DNA from: Ignavibacteriales bacterium
GTDB taxonomy: Bacteria > Bacteroidota > Ignavibacteria > T3Sed10-11
Assembly: GCA_003568415.1 (NCBI GenBank)
Contig: PWXV01000324.1
Location: 8,736-72,735 of the forward strand
DNA: 64,000 nt
Reading direction: 5' to 3'
A model generated the notes under the pieces. That model saw only the letters and a list, made by a program, of their open reading frames with translations, was not told the origin of the DNA and ran no database searches. The position numbers were made by a program, and so were the translations under genes. Shown piece by piece: positions 39,077 to 49,156 of this stretch (positions are counted from its first letter, which is position 1; each line of letters begins with the position of its first letter).

Positions 39077-41557
39077 ATGGCGAAACGAGCGCAACGGTCC
39101 CGTCCTGCTAAAAAATCAAATCAAAAATCTCATCCGTTACGGTTACCACCCCATGAACTACGTTGGCGCTGGTCAGATAAGGATATTTCAGTTACCTCGA
39201 CTGACGATGCAAAATCTTCAACCGATATTATCGGACAGGAACGGGCACTGAAATCTCTTCGTATCGGTCTTGAAATGAAACATTTTGGCTATAATGTTTT
39301 TGTTACCGGATTAACCGGTACCGGCCGTACCACGACCATTAAACGTATGTTGAAAGAGTTTGAAAATAACAATCAGCATCTTGAAGATATCTGTTATGTG
39401 TATAACTTTCACGATGCCGACCGACCGCTGATGATTCGTTTGCCGGCAGGACAGGGGAAATCTTTTGAAAAGGATATGAACGACTTCGTAGCAGATTTAC
39501 AGAAGACGATCCCCACAGTTCTGGAAGGAAAACGGTTTCAGGAAAAACGGAAGGAGACAATCGAACACTTTCAAGGCCGCCAGAGAACAATTTTACGGGA
39601 CTTTGAGAAAAAAGTAAGAGACCGCGGATTTGAGATGATACAGGTTCAGGTGGGGGCTATGGTCAGACCCGAGATAGCACCGGTAATCGAAGAAAAACCC
39701 ATCGCAATGGATCAACTCGACGGACTTGTGAAGGAAGGGAAAATAAGTCAGGACGATCTTAAGAAATATCAGGAACAGTATTCTAATCTTGTTGCGCAGA
39801 TGGAAACTGTTTTCAGGGAAATGAAAAACATTGAACGGAAAGCCCGGGAAGCGCTCGATAAACTCGACGAGCAATTTATTCTGCCGATTGTAAAGGATGC
39901 CGTCTCCGAAATTGCCACAAAATATAAGAATGAAAAGATATCACGTTATCTCGATGATGTTTGTAAGAGTGTGATGGAAAATCTTGATCGTTTTCGGAAA
40001 GACGAACAACAATCACAACAGATGCCCTTCCAGATACAACAACAGGATGATACGTTTACTGAGTATAAAGTGAACGTGGTTGTCGATAACTCCGAACAGG
40101 AAAATATTCCTATGATCGTTGAAACAAATCCAAAATACCGGAGCCTGTTTGGAACGATCGATCGTTCGTTTGATCCACGAGGAATGTGGAAAACCGATTT
40201 CACTCAGATTAAGGCAGGTTCTTTGTTGAAGGCAAATGGGGGGTATCTCGTACTCAATGCTCTGGATACGCTGATCGAACCCGGTGTCTGGCAGGATTTG
40301 AAAAGAACTCTGCGTACGAATCTTGTCGACGTTCAGTCGTATGAACCGTGGTTCTTTACATCGAGCGGTTTAAAGCCCGAACCAATAGAAATTGATGTTA
40401 AAGTAATAATGATCGGCGATGCGTTTCTTTATCATTTATTGTATGATAGAGATGAGGATTTTAAAAAGATATTTAAAATACGTGCCGACTTCGATGTTGA
40501 AATGGAGCGGACTGAAGAACATATCGGTAATTACAGCGCTTTTATAAAAATGCTATGTGAAGATGAGAAAATTCTAAAATTCGAGCAGGATGCTATCGGT
40601 GAAGTGGTTGAATTCGGTGTCCGGACTGCCGGGCGCAAGAAAAAACTATCGACTCGTTTTAATGTTATAGCAGATATTATCCGTGAAGCGAATTACTGGG
40701 CAAAAAAAGAGAATGCTTCATCCGTTAACGGTACACACGTTGAGCGTGCAATTGAAGAGCGTATTGATCGGGTTCGTCTTGTTGAATCCAAGATTCAGGA
40801 ACTGATTGAAGAAGGCACGTTGATGATAGAAACCGATGGTGAAGTGATCGGTCAGGTTAACGGGCTTGCTGTATACGATCTCGGTGAACATGCGTTCGGT
40901 AAACCAACAAGAATAACGGCAAAAACTTCAATCGGAAAAGGTAATATTCTAAATATCGAACGTGAAGCGGATCTCAGCGGACGGGTCCACCGTAAAGGGG
41001 TTGCGATCCTAACCGGTTACCTCCACTGGATGTTCTCACAGGACAAACCGCTTGCCTTCAATGCCAGCATTTGTTTTGAGCAGTCATACTCCGGTGTAGA
41101 TGGCGACAGTGCATCATCAACTGAAATCTATGCTATCCTGTCGAGTCTTGCTGAACTCCCGATCAAACAAAATATTGCTGTAACGGGCTCGGTTAATCAA
41201 AAAGGTGAGATTCAACCGATTGGTGGTGTGAATATGAAAATTGAAGGATTTTTCGATGTTTGTAAAATGCGCGGTTTAACGGGCGATCAGGGAGTGATTA
41301 TCCCGCATCAGAATGTACAGAATCTTATGTTAAGAAAAGATGTGATCGAAGCGGTTGAGAAAAGGAAGTTTCACATCTTCGCCATCAAAACCGTCGAAGA
41401 AGGAATTGAACTACTCACCGGGGTAAAAGCCGGTAAACGTACGCGTACCGGAAAATTTGAGGCCAGAAGTATTTTCGGCCGTGTTGATCATAAGTTACAG
41501 GAATATGCAAAACGAGTACGTGGTGCGATGAGACGTGTTGACCGGGAGAGTAATTAA
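39077..41557 (+). CDS. LonC-type Lon-like protease (degenerate AAA domain, coiled coil, S16 protease domain)
   Basis: IIGQERA, GLTGTGRTT, ANGGYLVL, FEQSYSGVDGDSASS, TGSVNQ.G.IQPIGGVN.KIEGF. Confidence 0.88.
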   Translation: MAKRAQRSRPAKKSNQKSHPLRLPPHELRWRWSDKDISVTSTDDAKSSTDIIGQERALKSLRIGLEMKHFGYNVFVTGLTGTGRTTTIKRMLKEFENNNQHLEDICYVYNFHDADRPLMIRLPAGQGKSFEKDMNDFVADLQKTIPTVLEGKRFQEKRKETIEHFQGRQRTILRDFEKKVRDRGFEMIQVQVGAMVRPEIAPVIEEKPIAMDQLDGLVKEGKISQDDLKKYQEQYSNLVAQMETVFREMKNIERKAREALDKLDEQFILPIVKDAVSEIATKYKNEKISRYLDDVCKSVMENLDRFRKDEQQSQQMPFQIQQQDDTFTEYKVNVVVDNSEQENIPMIVETNPKYRSLFGTIDRSFDPRGMWKTDFTQIKAGSLLKANGGYLVLNALDTLIEPGVWQDLKRTLRTNLVDVQSYEPWFFTSSGLKPEPIEIDVKVIMIGDAFLYHLLYDRDEDFKKIFKIRADFDVEMERTEEHIGNYSAFIKMLCEDEKILKFEQDAIGEVVEFGVRTAGRKKKLSTRFNVIADIIREANYWAKKENASSVNGTHVERAIEERIDRVRLVESKIQELIEEGTLMIETDGEVIGQVNGLAVYDLGEHAFGKPTRITAKTSIGKGNILNIEREADLSGRVHRKGVAILTGYLHWMFSQDKPLAFNASICFEQSYSGVDGDSASSTEIYAILSSLAELPIKQNIAVTGSVNQKGEIQPIGGVNMKIEGFFDVCKMRGLTGDQGVIIPHQNVQNLMLRKDVIEAVEKRKFHIFAIKTVEEGIELLTGVKAGKRTRTGKFEARSIFGRVDHKLQEYAKRVRGAMRRVDRESN

Positions 41558-41577
41558 TTTGTATTGAGAAAATGACA

Positions 41578-43239
41578 CTACATCGGTTCTGCACCTAATT
41601 CCCGCCGCATTGTCTCAATAACGGGATGCTCTTTATTTTTTTCACCGTTTGTACTTTTGTTATCCCGTCTTATCTTATCTTTCTCTATCTGGAATGAGGT
41701 CGGTATCCCGAAAACCCGCTCGGATATTTTACTTAAATAATCCTTATTTCGCCGGAGTGTGTTGAGTTGAAAATCATTTTCGCAGGATAGTTGTAAACAT
41801 CCGTTATCTACATCGACAAGTGCCGATTGGCTGAGAATAGAACCCAGGTTAATTCGGGATGTCTTAACAGCAGTAACGAATTCATTCCAGCGCGCAAATG
41901 CCTCCTCAGCGGATATTGATTTAGGTGTGTCAGATGGTTGCACAGGTTTCTGGGGAGGCTGTTCCCGAACTACGTTCGTAACGGGTGAGGGAGGCGATTG
42001 TTTGCTAACCGGCGATGTATTTGTCGTACCATTAGTGGTAGTGGTTTGCCAGCCTGCATGAGCACTTCCCCGAATTGGGATGCCGCCATCATCAGTCACG
42101 TTGTTTTTTTTTAATTCATCCAGACGGTTAATCAACGTTTGCATATCCGCGGTTTTTTCCATTTTAATCAATTCGATAATACCGCTTTCCAGCCGGATTC
42201 GCGGCTGTGAACTATACCGAAGATCCTTGTGCAATTCGATAATTGCCCGGAGATACCGTATGAGATCGACATCGTTGAAGTGCCTGGCTTCTTCCTGATA
42301 CCGTTTACGGTATTCGGCAGATGTTTCTATCAAATCTGATGAATTTGTTGTAGTAATGGTGAGCAGATTCCGGACATGTTCTGCAAGACCGGCCAGGAAT
42401 TCACGCATATCGTATCCATTATCCACAATACGGGCGATAAGCTGGAGCCCGCGTTTTGTATCACGGTTACGGAGTATATCGGTTACATCGAAATACAGAT
42501 CCTGATCAACTATATTCAGCGTTTCAAGTACCAGCGCTGCAGTAACATTGGTGCCTGAAAATGCGACAACCTGATCGAAGATGCTTTGTGCATCCCGCAT
42601 AGATCCGTCGCCCTTCTTTGCAATGTATAGCAACGCATCGTCTTCGATGGTAATGTTTTCTTCTTTCGCAATTAACCGAAGACGCTCTATAATATCATTA
42701 ATTGCGATGCGCCTGAAATCGAATCGTTGACAGCGTGAAAGGATTGTGGGTGGTACTTTGTGTACTTCGGTTGTCGCAAAAACAAACAGAACATGTGACG
42801 GCGGTTCCTCGAGAGTTTTTAAAAGTGCATTGAATGCCTCTTTGGTAAGCATATGCACTTCGTCGATGATGTACACTTTATATTTTGATTTTGCCGGTGC
42901 ATAGCGTACCGCTTCACGCAGATTTCGTATTTCCTCAACGCCGCGGTTTGAAGCACCGTCTATCTCAAAGACATCGACATTCCTTCCGCTGCTGATTTCC
43001 TGGCACGATTCGCATTCGTTGCATGGAGTACCATCCACCGGTTTGGCACAATTTAATACGCGGGCGAGTATCCGGGCAACGGTAGTCTTACCGACACCGC
43101 GCGGGCCGCTGAAGATGTAGGCATGGCCGAGCCGGTTCTGCTGGATGGCATTCTTTAATGTTAAACTAACATGTTGTTGTCCGACAACGTCTTCGAATGT
43201 TGTCGGCCGCCATTTTCGAGCTGTTACGATGTAGGTCAT
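41578..43239 (-). CDS. dnaX: DNA polymerase III subunits gamma/tau
   Basis: ARKWRP..F.DVVGQ, GPRGVGKTT, PCNECESC, DEVHML, SRCQ. Confidence 0.97.
   Translation of the reverse strand: MTYIVTARKWRPTTFEDVVGQQHVSLTLKNAIQQNRLGHAYIFSGPRGVGKTTVARILARVLNCAKPVDGTPCNECESCQEISSGRNVDVFEIDGASNRGVEEIRNLREAVRYAPAKSKYKVYIIDEVHMLTKEAFNALLKTLEEPPSHVLFVFATTEVHKVPPTILSRCQRFDFRRIAINDIIERLRLIAKEENITIEDDALLYIAKKGDGSMRDAQSIFDQVVAFSGTNVTAALVLETLNIVDQDLYFDVTDILRNRDTKRGLQLIARIVDNGYDMREFLAGLAEHVRNLLTITTTNSSDLIETSAEYRKRYQEEARHFNDVDLIRYLRAIIELHKDLRYSSQPRIRLESGIIELIKMEKTADMQTLINRLDELKKNNVTDDGGIPIRGSAHAGWQTTTTNGTTNTSPVSKQSPPSPVTNVVREQPPQKPVQPSDTPKSISAEEAFARWNEFVTAVKTSRINLGSILSQSALVDVDNGCLQLSCENDFQLNTLRRNKDYLSKISERVFGIPTSFQIEKDKIRRDNKSTNGEKNKEHPVIETMRRELGAEPM
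42104..42112 (-). other. A9 run in dnaX, candidate slippage/frameshift site
   Basis: TTA AAA AAA AAC; TGA stops follow within a few codons in both shifted frames (42096-42098 and 42092-42094). Confidence 0.65.
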
Positions 43240-43266
43240 AGATAAAGATTTACTGAGTATTCAATG

Positions 43267-44175
43267 TTACCGTGTCACGAGTATCGGGCAAGGTGCACTC
43301 TTGATCACCCTGTCGGTCGTGCTGCCGATGAGATAATCGGCGATTTCGTCGTGGCCGCGTGTTGACATTACAATGAGATCATGTTTTTGCGATTGTGCTT
43401 GTTTTACTATTTGTGTGTGAGAGCTGCCCTCGGTAATGCTTGTTGCAACTTCGATTCCCGAAAGATCGAATGATTGTAAGAAAGCTTCGAGCCGCGCCTG
43501 TATACGCGGCTTGATGTCGGGATCGAGCTGGAATATTGATTCTACCCCGGCGGCATAATATGCAGGATGAAACCGTACTTCAAGCGAATGCATCAGGTTA
43601 ATTTTCGCATTGTATTCCTTTGCCAGTACTACTGCGTACTCCATTGCCTGCCGTGAGCTTTCTGAAAAATCTGTCGGCACCAGTATATTGTTAAATAAAA
43701 GCTCTTGTAAATCCGCATGCTTCGGTTTTTTTGTCACAAGCACGGGACAAGACGCGGTTTGAATGACTTTTTCGGTAACGCTACCCAATAATACGTGTGC
43801 CACTCCTGACCGGCCATGCGTTGCCATCACAATCAGGTTAACGATATTATTCTTTGCATACCCGGTGATAACTTCGTGTGGTGAGATACCGCGTTCCATC
43901 ACTTTTTCAATTGAAAGCTTCTTCGATGTTTCGTTTGCGTTTTCGATGATCTCATCACAATAATTGTTGGCTGATTCCTCGATGCTTTCATACAAGTCAT
44001 CGGCCGATGAAAATGATTTTTGTGAACCGTACGGATCATATTCAAACATTGTAATTGCATGCAGTAATGTGATCTTCGATCCGAATTTACCGGCAATTTT
44101 ATATGCATAGGGGAGTGCTTCTCTGGATGTATCGGAGAAGTCTATCGGTACCAGTATATGATCGAGAGGTATCAT
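43267..44175 (-). CDS. Tandem universal stress protein
   Basis: Two USP domains (ILVP.DFS..S; LIVM.T.G...GS.T..VI..A.CP.LV); ATGA overlap with lon. Confidence 0.92.
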   Translation of the reverse strand: MIPLDHILVPIDFSDTSREALPYAYKIAGKFGSKITLLHAITMFEYDPYGSQKSFSSADDLYESIEESANNYCDEIIENANETSKKLSIEKVMERGISPHEVITGYAKNNIVNLIVMATHGRSGVAHVLLGSVTEKVIQTASCPVLVTKKPKHADLQELLFNNILVPTDFSESSRQAMEYAVVLAKEYNAKINLMHSLEVRFHPAYYAAGVESIFQLDPDIKPRIQARLEAFLQSFDLSGIEVATSITEGSSHTQIVKQAQSQKHDLIVMSTRGHDEIADYLIGSTTDRVIKSAPCPILVTR

Positions 44176-46601
44176 CGCTTCTTCTTTTTTGTTTTTGATG
44201 TATTTCGTTTTCTGGTCTTACCATTAGTAAACGTATGGTCGAGTGCCTCCAGTATAGTATTGACCGGAATAATTTGCAAGCCCGTTTTCACCCGTTCGGG
44301 TATTTCAACTAAATATTTTTCATTTTCTTTCGGAATAAGCACTTTTTTTATACGGTGACGTTTTGCAGCGAGAAGCTTTTCGGTTAAGCCGCCAACTGCA
44401 AGTACCTTGCCGCGTAATGTTATTTCGCCGGTCATCGCCACCTCGGGGTCGGTGCGGCGATTTGCAAGCGCTGAAATGACAGCCATTGTCATGGTTAGTC
44501 CAGCCGAGGGGCCGTCTTTCGGGATGGCACCCTCCGGGAGATGAATATGTATTTCTTTACCCTTGTAAAATTCAGGATGAATACCCAATGCTTCGGCATT
44601 TGACCGAATATAACTCAACGCTGCATGTGCCGATTCTTTCATCACATCGCCGAGTTTGCCGGTGAGATTTAAACGCTCTTTACCGTCCATAATAATTGCT
44701 TCGACATTCAACAGTTCGCCGCCTACACTTGTCCATGCAAGACCGGTCGCGATACCAATGCGGCGGGTTTCATCTTTTGGCCGTTGAACGTAGCGTGGCA
44801 CGCCGAGATACGCCTCAACTTTTTTAGGATCGATGGATATCCTGGTAATTTTCCGTCGACCGTTAGATTGTCGTTTTGTAACAATATCTTTTGCGCTCTT
44901 GCGTACTAAGGATGCAATTTCCCGTTCGAGATTACGAACACCGGCCTCTTTGGTATACTCTTCAATAACCTTGGAAATACTTTTATTATGTATTTTAATC
45001 TGCGATGTCTTCAGCCCGTGCATGCTAATTTGTTTGGGGATGATATGCCTTCGTGCAATTTCGATTTTTTCGTGAGCAAGATATCCCGGTAGATCGATGA
45101 TCTCCATTCTGTCCTGAAGCGGCAACGGTATCGCGTGCCGGTTGTTGGCAGTCGTTATGAAGAGTACATTTGATAGATCGTAATCCACCTCAATGTAATG
45201 ATCTGAAAACGTATGGTTCTGTTCGGGGTCAAGCACTTCGAGCAATGCCGATGCAGGATCACCATGAAAATCGAATGTGAGTTTATCAACTTCGTCCAGA
45301 AGCATAACGGGATTGATAACACCGGCCCGTTTCATCGACTGGATGATCTTACCTGGCATCGAGCCGATATATGTTCTGCGATGACCGCGAATCTCAGCTT
45401 CATCGCGTATACCGCCGAGCGAGAATCGGACAAATTTACGGTTCAGAGCGCGGGCGATTGAACGACCGAGCGATGTTTTGCCAACACCGGGTGGCCCAAC
45501 AAAACAAAGAATCTGTCCGCGAATCTGTTTGACAAGATTAAGAACTGCAATATGCTCAATGATACGGTCCTTCGGTTTATCAAGTCCGTAATGGTCTTCA
45601 TCGAGAATTTTTTTAACGTGTTCGATATCTAGGTGATCTTCGGTACGTTCTTTCCATGGTATCGAAACCATCCAATCCAGATAATTGCGGCTCACGGTAT
45701 ATTCGGGCGACATCGTCGGTATCTTCTTCAGTTTATTCAGTTCTTCCTCTGCCTTTGCACGTGCTTCTTCCGGAAGTCCTGCTGCTTCTATCTCTTCACG
45801 AAGTTTTGCCAGTTCGGGTGTTGCTTCGTCATCGCCCAGTTCATTCTGGAGAATTTTTATCTGTTCCTGTATAAAGTATTTTCGTTGTGATTTTTGAATG
45901 TTGTCATGAACCTTGGTATCGATTTCCTGTTCGAGTTTCAGAATATCGATCTCACCGCTGAGAATTCGTGAAAGTTCATAAAGTTGTTCCTGCAGTGAAG
46001 TTATTTTTAATAATCGCTGTTTAACTTCTACCGATTGTACTAAATTGGCTGCTATATAGTATAATTTTTGGACCGGATCTTTAATGTTCTCGTACACAAC
46101 CAGGACTTCGGATGGGATGTTCCGGCTTGATTTTACATAGTCGACAAACAGATTAGACAAATGACGCATATGTGCATCGAGTTCGGTCGTCTCTTTAAAA
46201 TCGGGCTGGATGATTTTTACTTCGGCTTCCATAAATTCTTCGTCCTGCCGAAGTTTTTTTGCGTGTGCCTGGATTGTTCCATCGACAAGGATCTTGATTA
46301 AACCATTCGGCAATTTAAGAATTTGTACAATGCGTGCAATGGTACCTTCGTGATATATGTCTTCAATGCCGGGTTCCTCGACGGTTGGATCCTTCTGCGA
46401 TGTGATAAAAATAAATTTTTCCTGCTCGAGGGCTTTGTATGCCGCTTTTAATGATGATTCACGTCCGACGAGCACGGGAAAAATCATATACGGAAATAAA
46501 ACAACATCCCTGAGCGGTAATACCGGTAAATCGGTCGGGATTGACTCGGGTGATTTTATAATATCTTCTTGTTCCTGCTCTTTGGTCAAATTAAAATTCA
46601 T
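44172..46601 (-). CDS. lon: ATP-dependent Lon protease (LonA)
   Basis: LPLRD.VLFP, GPPGVGKTS, RRTYIGSMPG, LLDEVDK, PKDGPSAG. Confidence 0.97.
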   Translation of the reverse strand: MNFNLTKEQEQEDIIKSPESIPTDLPVLPLRDVVLFPYMIFPVLVGRESSLKAAYKALEQEKFIFITSQKDPTVEEPGIEDIYHEGTIARIVQILKLPNGLIKILVDGTIQAHAKKLRQDEEFMEAEVKIIQPDFKETTELDAHMRHLSNLFVDYVKSSRNIPSEVLVVYENIKDPVQKLYYIAANLVQSVEVKQRLLKITSLQEQLYELSRILSGEIDILKLEQEIDTKVHDNIQKSQRKYFIQEQIKILQNELGDDEATPELAKLREEIEAAGLPEEARAKAEEELNKLKKIPTMSPEYTVSRNYLDWMVSIPWKERTEDHLDIEHVKKILDEDHYGLDKPKDRIIEHIAVLNLVKQIRGQILCFVGPPGVGKTSLGRSIARALNRKFVRFSLGGIRDEAEIRGHRRTYIGSMPGKIIQSMKRAGVINPVMLLDEVDKLTFDFHGDPASALLEVLDPEQNHTFSDHYIEVDYDLSNVLFITTANNRHAIPLPLQDRMEIIDLPGYLAHEKIEIARRHIIPKQISMHGLKTSQIKIHNKSISKVIEEYTKEAGVRNLEREIASLVRKSAKDIVTKRQSNGRRKITRISIDPKKVEAYLGVPRYVQRPKDETRRIGIATGLAWTSVGGELLNVEAIIMDGKERLNLTGKLGDVMKESAHAALSYIRSNAEALGIHPEFYKGKEIHIHLPEGAIPKDGPSAGLTMTMAVISALANRRTDPEVAMTGEITLRGKVLAVGGLTEKLLAAKRHRIKKVLIPKENEKYLVEIPERVKTGLQIIPVNTILEALDHTFTNGKTRKRNTSKTKKKKR

Positions 46602-47456: not shown

Positions 47457-48521
47457 TCACTTTTTAAAATGCTCATATCCGCCTGAGAGGATATTTCTAA
47501 TTGTCCCGTCAGTTTGTTGTAATGATACCGTTTCTTTATCTTCGTTAATTTCACCGATAACGGTAACGCCGGGTATGGTGTCCGATATTTCCTGTTCATA
47601 TTCGGAGTCGATGGTAAATAGTAGCTCGAATTCTTCACCTCCGAAAAGAGCATAATCCAAAGCGTTTTCATTAAACTCTTCAGCGATACTTCCAACTAAC
47701 GGGTCCAATGGGATAGCGTTTTCATACAACAGTGCTCCGACCCCGCTCTGCTTACAAACATGCCGCACGTCCGATACTAATCCATCACTGATATCGATCA
47801 TCGCATGCACCCATTCCTTTTGTGATGTAATGGTGGAGATGTCGAAACGTGCCTTCGGTGCTAGATGTTTTGATACGGCAAAACTGTATTTCTGTAATTG
47901 CGATTGGAATCCTTCTGGTGCTTGTGTTTCGATGAATCGTTGTTTTTCCCGCAATAAGATTTTTAATCCTGCATGAGACAGACCGAGGTTACCGGTTACA
48001 CATATTTTATCACCCGGTTTCGCGCCATTGCGTCTTTTAATAAACTGTACAGGTGCTTCACCGGTAATTGTTGCCGAAAGAACAGTGTTTCCTAATGACG
48101 TACTTGTATCACCGCCGATGATGGCACATGTATATGTTTGTGCCGCCTGGAGAATACCATCATATAATTCATCGACCATTTCGACAGAAATTTTAGCGGG
48201 TAATGCAATCGATATTATCGCGTGGGTCGGCACTCCTCCCATCGCTGCAATGTCACTGAGGTTTACGACCATCAATTTCCATCCGAGATGTTTCATTGAG
48301 GTGTATGTGAGATCAAAGTGAACACCTTCAATGAGCAAGTCGGAAGCGGTGAGTTGCATCATACCGGTTGATGGTTCGGTTATGGATGCATCGTCATCAA
48401 TGCCGAGTATGATCTGTTTTGCAATTTTATCTGATAAACGTGCTTCGTTACATTTTTTTTTGATACGTTCGATGAGGCCGAACTCACCGATTTCTGCAAT
48501 AGGAGTATGCTTTTTTGTCAT
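47457..48521 (-). CDS. thiL: Thiamine-monophosphate kinase
   Basis: GEFGLI, GIDDDA, EGVHF, NLSDIAAMGG, GGDT, MIDISDGL, GGEEFELLFT; likely start 48521. Confidence 0.93.
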   Translation of the reverse strand: MTKKHTPIAEIGEFGLIERIKKKCNEARLSDKIAKQIILGIDDDASITEPSTGMMQLTASDLLIEGVHFDLTYTSMKHLGWKLMVVNLSDIAAMGGVPTHAIISIALPAKISVEMVDELYDGILQAAQTYTCAIIGGDTSTSLGNTVLSATITGEAPVQFIKRRNGAKPGDKICVTGNLGLSHAGLKILLREKQRFIETQAPEGFQSQLQKYSFAVSKHLAPKARFDISTITSQKEWVHAMIDISDGLVSDVRHVCKQSGVGALLYENAIPLDPLVGSIAEEFNENALDYALFGGEEFELLFTIDSEYEQEISDTIPGVTVIGEINEDKETVSLQQTDGTIRNILSGGYEHFKK

Positions 48522-48558
48522 GTAATTATCGAACTTATGGGAGGTTTGATGAAAGGAT

Positions 48559-48587
48559 ACAACCCGGTGACAGCGCGTCCGGGTTGT
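48559..48587 (-). terminator. Hairpin between the TlpA gene and thiL
   Basis: acaacccgg-11nt-ccgggttgt perfect 9-bp stem at the TlpA stop. Confidence 0.4.
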
Positions 48588-49156
48588 CATAAATACTTTT
48601 TAATTTTTTCCATAAATTGTTCTTTGGTACGTATGCCGACTATTGTTTCTTGAAGGTTTCCCTCTTTGTCTAGTATGAGAGTTGTCGGTATGGCACGAAT
48701 GTTGCCGAATTGTCGTGTCAGTCGTCCGTCATCGAGTATTGTTATATAATTAATATTTTCGTCTTCAATGAAGATATCGACTTTATTAATGTCGGATACA
48801 TCGTCGACCGAGATTCCGAGTACGGCAAATGTGTTATCATCTAACTCGTTATTGATCTCAATGAGATACGGGATCTCTCTCCGGCAAGGAACACACCAGG
48901 TTGCCCAAAAATTGATAAGAACAACTTTGTCGCGGTAATCGCTGAGTGAAGCAGTTTCACCGTCTGCATTTTTCCACGAAAAGTTGATATTTGTTTCACC
49001 CGATTCACCAACTTCTGTTACGACTGCAACATTTCCAAGCGGCTCGATCGAGTCATTGACGGCAGGAGCTTGTTGAGAGTAATAAAAAAATACTATTCCG
49101 AGTACAGCGATAGTTATACCGAGGCGCATAATTTTAGTTTTTGTAATCTTGTGCAT
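48587..49156 (-). CDS. TlpA/ResA-family thiol-disulfide reductase, membrane anchored
   Basis: N-terminal TM helix; INFWATWCVPCRRE.P; cis-Pro IPTT. Confidence 0.9.
   Translation of the reverse strand: MHKITKTKIMRLGITIAVLGIVFFYYSQQAPAVNDSIEPLGNVAVVTEVGESGETNINFSWKNADGETASLSDYRDKVVLINFWATWCVPCRREIPYLIEINNELDDNTFAVLGISVDDVSDINKVDIFIEDENINYITILDDGRLTRQFGNIRAIPTTLILDKEGNLQETIVGIRTKEQFMEKIKKYL

Follow-up and report, generated by a model that had tools for sequence, protein, structure and literature searches.

The dnaX Locus and Its Run of Nine Adenines

We studied the dnaX gene of an Ignavibacteria-like bacterium from a soda lake (Ignavibacteriales bacterium, GenBank assembly GCA_003568415.1) and, within this gene, a run of nine adenines (A9) that is a candidate site for the production of a short DnaX form (gamma) beside the full-length one (tau). 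The gene lies in a stretch of 64,000 nucleotides (nt) of contig PWXV01000324.1 (positions 8,736 to 72,735 of the forward strand), hereafter the window, to which all coordinates refer. It consists of a single open reading frame (ORF) on the minus strand, coding for 553 amino acids (aa), and is recognized by the NCBIfam equivalog model for the N-terminal part of DnaX (dnaX_nterm) with 476 bits, for a cut-off of 250, and by the full-length gamma/tau model PRK05563 with 536 bits, for a cut-off of 400, over aa 7–537. More generally, the full-length NCBIfam gamma/tau models align as far as aa 528–537. Along the 553-aa product, Pfam delineates DNA_pol3_delta2 (aa 21–178), the ATPase lid (aa 183–229) and domain III (aa 232–372), and the A9 run starts four codons after the end of the latter. 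The part specific to tau begins with a low-complexity linker rich in Pro, Thr, Ser and Gln (approximately aa 380–440), which is followed by a C-terminal domain (approximately aa 441–553). In the order of the gene, the features are:

41578–43239, minus strand: dnaX, the uninterrupted zero frame of which (553 aa) codes for full-length tau (ORF translation, NCBIfam and Pfam)
42124..42546, minus strand: clamp-loader domain III, the last domain common to tau and the predicted gamma (PF12169, DNA_pol3_gamma3, aa 232–372, profile positions 1–142 of 143)
42104..42112, minus strand (T9 on the plus strand): A9 slippery run, TTA AAA AAA AAC, codons 376–379, gene nt 1128–1136
42096–42098, minus strand: TGA in the +1 frame, reached via one A fewer or two extra (translation)
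42092–42094, minus strand: TGA in the -1 frame, reached after insertion of one A or a -1 shift of the ribosome (translation)
41578..42103, minus strand: tau-only part, absent from the predicted gamma (sequence and full-length gamma/tau models)

Codons 375–383 read GAA TTA AAA AAA AAC AAC GTG ACT GAT on the minus strand, and the A9 run contains two in-phase heptamers, A_AAA_AAA and A_AAA_AAC. An earlier note on this DNA had located the run in these codons, at the end of the clamp-loader core and before a Pro/Thr/Ser linker, a location on which the sequence and Pfam agree. The lengths that it had given for the products were also reproduced by translation: 553 aa for the full product, 382 aa for a version with one A more (A10), which ends in ELKKKQRD at a TGA three codons past the run, and 380 aa for a version with one A fewer (A8), which ends in ELKKTT. 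Translation with two extra As leads to 381 aa ending in KKKTT. The zero frame goes on for 174 codons past the run, i.e., the gene does not have a split two-ORF layout. As for the stops in both shifted frames, to which the same note had drawn attention, the two TGAs do exist but carry little weight in this gene taken alone, where they are unremarkable: ranked among the off-frame stop distances of dnaX itself, their distances of three codons (-1 frame) and two codons (+1 frame) fall at quantiles of 26% and 12%, respectively.

Conservation of the Run in Orthologues of the Class

A protein search was carried out in 41 genomes belonging to 18 families: the genome of the window, five congeners, one further member of its family and 34 further members of its class. 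Orthologues of dnaX were retained in 40 of these genomes (G039, with a best match at E = 3.7e-9, i.e., at the level of a paralogue, was left out), and the corresponding loci were extracted by tblastn anchoring. In 21 of the 40 orthologues, a run of nine (14 genes) or ten (7 genes) adenines lies no more than about 35 codons beyond domain III. Run-bearing members are found in 14 of the 18 families, and the proteins of these families are 40–85% identical to the DnaX of the window. Most of the runs (17) occupy the homologous [LIV]KK[KN]/KKK site (codons 376–381), while the other four are located another 12–30 codons into the linker. Across the 40 genes, runs of at least nine adenines amount to 21 in the 5,000 nt of the site, against only two in the remaining 61,474 nt.

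Inside the runs, lysine is encoded 49 times by AAA and twice by AAG, compared to 494 and 217 times, respectively, elsewhere in the same genes. Moreover, the codon preceding the runs in phase 2 is always TTA, CTA, GTA or ATA, among which CTA, ATA and GTA are rare. Both the AAA bias and these A-ending codons indicate that conservation operates at the nucleotide level, and the four lineages in which the run is placed elsewhere in the linker point to selection for the run itself rather than for the peptide. When computed from the local peptide and from the codon usage of each gene, the probability of a run of at least nine adenines averages 0.16 per gene (geometric mean). Finally, the length of the run is 9 or 10 in 21 out of 21 cases, and none of the 19 other orthologues has an A7 or an A8 at the aligned site. 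The check proposed in the earlier note, i.e., conservation of the run and an excess of AAA over AAG in orthologues, thus gave a positive answer.

Among the five congeners, four carry the run. The exception (locus L005, genome G005) reads TTA AAA AAG AAC at codons 376–379, which corresponds to AAAAAAG, the exact in-phase heptamer A_AAA_AAG of Escherichia coli, and its off-frame stops are distant (39 and 55 codons); this congener has either lost gamma or switched to another mechanism. In a further locus of the same genus (L017, genome G004), dnaX is cut by the end of a contig, and its zero frame meets a TAG about 27 codons beyond the A9 run; this stop may reflect either a misassembly or a genuine nonsense mutation in this metagenome-assembled genome (MAG) of 79% completeness.

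Avoidance of Long A Runs in the Genome

The source genome (3.99 Mb in 342 contigs, with a guanine–cytosine (GC) content of 44%) contains 294 A/T runs of length 8 and 33 of length 9, but none that is longer. The frequency of such runs in coding sequences was evaluated on a crude proxy gene set of 2683 ORFs that do not overlap and are 150 aa or longer, which were compared with ten synonymous-codon shuffles. A runs of at least nine nucleotides are observed 13 times against 125.6 ± 7.2 times after shuffling, an approximately tenfold depletion, while those of at least ten are never observed (45.8 after shuffling), and neither are T runs of at least nine (39.6 after shuffling). In contrast, A runs of at least six are not depleted (2956 observed against 2982.5 shuffled). 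Because depletion affects runs of at least nine but not those of at least six, long A runs are selected against in this genome, and length 9 represents the onset of avoidance. It is against this background that dnaX figures among the 13 proxy genes with an A run of at least nine. Selection against slippage-prone run lengths has been described by Baranov et al. (2005; PMC1088944), in a screen from which truncating cases, such as the dnaX considered here, were explicitly excluded.

The only other A9 of the window lies at 48453–48461 on the minus strand, inside the ORF 47457–48590, at codon 44 of a 377-aa gene of the AIR-synthase family. It belongs to the 13 A9 runs of the proxy genes, is upstream of the first Pfam domain of the product (AIRS, aa 66–178; AIRS_C, aa 191–354) and may either precede the true start codon or be another slippage candidate. 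Eleven more proxy genes with a sense-strand A9 are found outside the window, on contigs C29, C77, C90, C113, C125, C129, C153, C195, C248, C255 and C277.

Off-Frame Stops, Stimulators and Run Length in Sequencing Runs

Near off-frame stops are more frequent in the relatives with a run than in those without. In the -1 frame, a stop occurs within nine codons of the run in 21 out of 21 run-bearing orthologues (median of 3 codons), against 6 of the 19 orthologues without a run, for which distances were taken from the aligned position (median of 12). In the +1 frame, 18 of the 21 run-bearing orthologues have a stop within 11 codons, and the medians are 5 codons for them and 52 codons for the 19 run-less ones. 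Mann–Whitney tests, for which three open-ended distances were set to 200 codons, yield p = 4e-6 for the -1 frame and p = 0.002 for the +1 frame, in a comparison that is uncorrected for phylogeny and GC content.

Short stems downstream of the run had been put forward in the earlier note as possible stimulators, an idea that our folding analyses do not support. The minimum free energy (MFE) of the 70 nt downstream is -15.7 kcal/mol, while the shuffles average -17.5 (z = +0.63), with 145 of 200 shuffles folding at least as well, and the 70 nt upstream (z = +0.53) and the whole 149 nt (z = +0.33) do not depart from their shuffles either. The stems at issue (gatg..catc and ccc..ggg) are part of the MFE fold, yet this fold is no better than chance. 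Likewise, no consistent structure was found in the 60-nt flanks of the 21 run-bearing relatives when compared with mononucleotide shuffles, where only the downstream flank of L017 stands out (z = -2.74). As for Shine–Dalgarno (SD)-like motifs, none is located between -20 and -4 nt of the run in the window, and they are present in 6 of the 21 relatives.

A search found dnaX in 20 sequencing-run rows, one of which is recorded as RNA (X10, a metatranscriptome). Over positions 41400–43400 of the window, we compared the Logan contigs of X10 with those of three DNA runs, X15 (same sample as X10), X14 and X1, the whole originating from at least two studies. In each of the three metagenome runs, the DNA contigs show A9 and no indel, and the length of the run is thus stable at the DNA level. 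In X10, one contig of 3771 nt spans the run and likewise reads A9 with no indel, but contigs lose minor length variants and the library may contain DNA, which makes this reading neutral as to the heterogeneity or expression of the mRNA. The contigs of X14 and X15 break at 41792–41831, 42476–42507 and 43196–43240, and those of X10 also break at 42476–42505; these shared breaks in or beside dnaX are probably due to strain microdiversity.

Probable Transcriptional Slippage and the Alternatives

On the strength of these comparisons, we consider it probable that gamma is made beside tau through transcriptional slippage at the A9 run, which would then be a programmed recoding site like that of Thermus thermophilus. 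According to this model, RNA polymerase would slip on the nine template Ts and produce dnaX mRNAs with 9, 10, 8 or 11 As. Those with 9 (or 12) As would be translated into the full-length tau of 553 aa, while, in those with one A more or fewer, ribosomes would reach a TGA two to three codons later. The outcome would be a gamma-like subunit of 380–382 aa, endowed with domains I–III but devoid of the linker and of the C-terminal part that binds the polymerase and the helicase. What the sequences establish is the anatomy of the site, the conservation of the run as nucleotides and the avoidance of such runs in the genome; we infer that slippage occurs, that it takes place during transcription and that the cell makes use of the short product. 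Recoding at this site as the source of both tau and gamma had been proposed in the earlier note, and the proposal is now well supported by sequence comparison, owing to the 21 of 40 orthologues that keep the run in the face of its genome-wide avoidance and to their close off-frame stops.

Three observations lead us to favor transcriptional slippage over ribosomal frameshifting: no stimulator was recovered around the run, the runs are always 9 or 10 nucleotides long though 7 would suffice, and avoidance in the genome starts at 9. Indeed, slippage on a long run fits the missing RNA structure and SD-like element, since a long run needs none. Furthermore, a length of 9 matches the A9 of Thermus (PMC1088944; PMC5009743).

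Several results nonetheless weigh against such a programmed slippage site, beginning with the uncorrected nature of the stop comparison given above. When the stop density of each gene is used as its own control, the enrichment in near stops holds for the -1 frame (Fisher p = 0.005) but not for the +1 frame (p = 0.20), and an enrichment limited to the -1 frame fits -1 ribosomal frameshifting equally well. In the same vein, every A9 holds an in-phase A_AAA_AAN, so that transcription and translation are inseparable by sequence. Moreover, 19 of the 40 class orthologues, including the congener L005, do without the run, which is therefore either dispensable or replaceable. On a maximum-likelihood tree of dnaX (39 rows, the partial L017 being left out), the presence of the run entails 11 changes, for a mean of 13.3 when shuffled, a value this low being reached in 69 of 500 shuffles. 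The run is thus a widespread but labile trait, barely clustered on the tree, as a consequence of many losses, repeated rebuilding, or both; at least some re-creation is favored by the four runs that sit at shifted positions.

Alternatively, the gamma-like product might mainly result from -1 programmed ribosomal frameshifting on A_AAA_AAA or A_AAA_AAC, and end at the TGA three codons on. The required in-phase heptamers are available in the window and in each of the 21 relatives with a run, irrespective of its phase, and both the near-stop enrichment specific to the -1 frame and the exact A_AAA_AAG of L005 would be in line with such a mechanism. Nevertheless, the -1 frame of L005 stays open for about 40 codons, and A_AAA_AAA and A_AAA_AAC shift far less readily in E. 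coli than does A_AAA_AAG (PMC5009743). The genome also encodes both tRNA-Lys(CUU) and tRNA-Lys(UUU), which speaks against frameshifting as well, as do the negative searches for a downstream stem-loop and for an upstream SD-like element in the window, the inconsistent folding and the minority of SD-like motifs in the relatives, and the invariable length of the runs. All in all, we find this route unlikely as the main source of gamma, while transcriptional and ribosomal slippage may both contribute.

It is also conceivable, with a slightly lower probability still, that the A9 run has no function and is a by-product of a Lys-rich ELKKN junction in a moderately AT-rich genome, any slippage products being tolerated as noise. 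AAA accounts for 71% of the Lys codons, and the codon usage of dnaX itself gives a run of at least nine adenines a probability of 0.118 for the peptide LKKN. In addition, twelve other proxy genes also carry an A9, near off-frame stops are common in dnaX, as seen from their quantiles, and many relatives lack the run. Yet, in spite of the tenfold depletion of such runs in coding sequences, the run is kept at the junction in most of the families, where the 21 occurrences contrast with two elsewhere in twelve times more sequence, and lysine is almost exclusively encoded by AAA inside it. The four lineages with a run at other positions of the linker are equally difficult to reconcile with a mere by-product.

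Lastly, an artefact or a phase variation at the DNA level, i.e., a homopolymer assembly error or a replication slippage switching between dnaX forms, is very improbable: homopolymers are indeed error-prone and the assembly is in hundreds of contigs, but dnaX has an uninterrupted zero frame, A9 without indel is read in the contigs of all three DNA runs and of the RNA-library run, and the same run length recurs in four congeners. Tau being essential, an on/off switch of dnaX is implausible too.

Comparison with Known Systems and Distribution in the FCB Group

Transcriptional slippage as proposed for the window has its model in T. thermophilus, in which the RNA polymerase slips on an A9 of dnaX (Larsen et al. 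2000, as described in PMC1088944 and PMC5009743) and RNAs of altered run length make up tens of percent (PMC1088944). In both genes, tau is encoded by one zero-frame ORF, the sense strand carries an A9, the two other frames have close stops and a truncated gamma is expected. In contrast to T. thermophilus, the run is here at 68% of the gene, where it begins at codon 376 of 553 immediately behind domain III, and the organism belongs to another phylum, as an Ignavibacteria-like member of the Fibrobacteres–Chlorobi–Bacteroidetes (FCB) group.

In E. coli, dnaX undergoes -1 ribosomal frameshifting at A_AAA_AAG, with the help of an SD-like element and a stem-loop (PMC3711429; PMC5009743). The similarities with our case are the gene itself, an in-phase A-rich heptamer, a gamma that ends just past the shift and a tau encoded by the zero frame, while the differences lie in the lack of an SD-like element upstream and of a stem-loop downstream, and in a run that is nine nucleotides long and ends with AAC instead of AAG.

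A third configuration is the two-ORF dnaX of Antonov et al. (2013; PMC3711429), in which the zero frame stops after an A10 or a shorter poly-A and tau needs recoding; 17 such genes were found, from 12 genera that include Chlorobi. These genes share with ours a poly-A at the same junction and, with Chlorobi, a related lineage. They differ by their zero frame, which corresponds to tau in the window, where it is the short form that would be made by slippage, but a single A is enough to go from one layout to the other.

The distribution of these layouts was then considered in a wider survey of 80 named loci fetched with the DnaX of the window, for which FCB labels were assigned by hand from record titles. 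A run of 9 to 11 adenines is present at the junction in at least 29 of the 47 FCB-labelled loci, 22 of them unsplit and 7 with the split layout, but in only 1 of the 33 others. The FCB tally is a lower bound, because the runs of L032 and L068 escaped it. The split layout, in which the zero frame ends within 15 codons after an A10 (at 366–400 aa), characterizes L053, L055, L056, L069, L084, L087 and L099, the records of which are assigned to Bacteroidales, Sunxiuqinia, Chlorobiaceae/Chlorobium, Paludibacter and Bacteroidetes. Outside Bacteroidota, a Desulfobacteraceae MAG (L042) has an A10 at codon 394, and a Fibrobacteria MAG (L098) has an A11 at codon 389. Of these two, L042 is the only run-bearing locus among the 33 that are not labelled FCB.

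We tentatively suggest that poly-A slippage at the junction between domain III and the linker could be the ancestral and dominant route to gamma across the FCB superphylum (Ignavibacteria, Bacteroidia, Chlorobia and Fibrobacteria), which would have been repeatedly lost, re-created elsewhere in the linker and toggled by one-base indels between layouts with tau or with gamma in frame, a scenario to which we give slightly less than even chances. If true, bacteria would recode dnaX more commonly by transcriptional slippage than by any other mechanism, the ribosomal frameshift of E. coli included. In the literature, we found no paper pairing "dnaX" with "Ignavibacteri", and Antonov et al. (2013; PMC3711429) was the only one found to combine dnaX, Bacteroidetes and slippage.

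Genes Surrounding dnaX

On one side, dnaX is flanked by the gene of a LonB/LonC-like AAA+ protease of 826 aa (39077–41557, plus strand). On the other side, it is flanked by the gene of a tandem universal stress protein of 302 aa (43267–44175, minus strand), next to which a gene for an 809-aa protein (44172–46601, minus strand) looks like that of a classical Lon protease, as judged from its translation alone. The ybaB/recR pair, which often follows dnaX, does not adjoin it in this window.

Significance for DnaX Evolution

The mechanism that we propose is not new, as poly-A recoding of dnaX has been shown in Thermus and was predicted for Chlorobi in 2013 (PMC3711429). What the dnaX of this Ignavibacteria-like bacterium adds is a well-supported case, and with it a whole class, to the short list of bacteria that are thought to make tau and gamma by poly-A slippage. 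In terms of annotation, the 553-aa ORF should be accompanied by the mention of an expected product of about 381 aa. Finally, since the role of DnaX processing is presented as still unknown in a 2022 preprint (bioRxiv 10.1101/2022.11.10.516041), the losses of the run, its relocation within the linker and its toggling by one base bear on the question of why bacteria keep two forms of DnaX.

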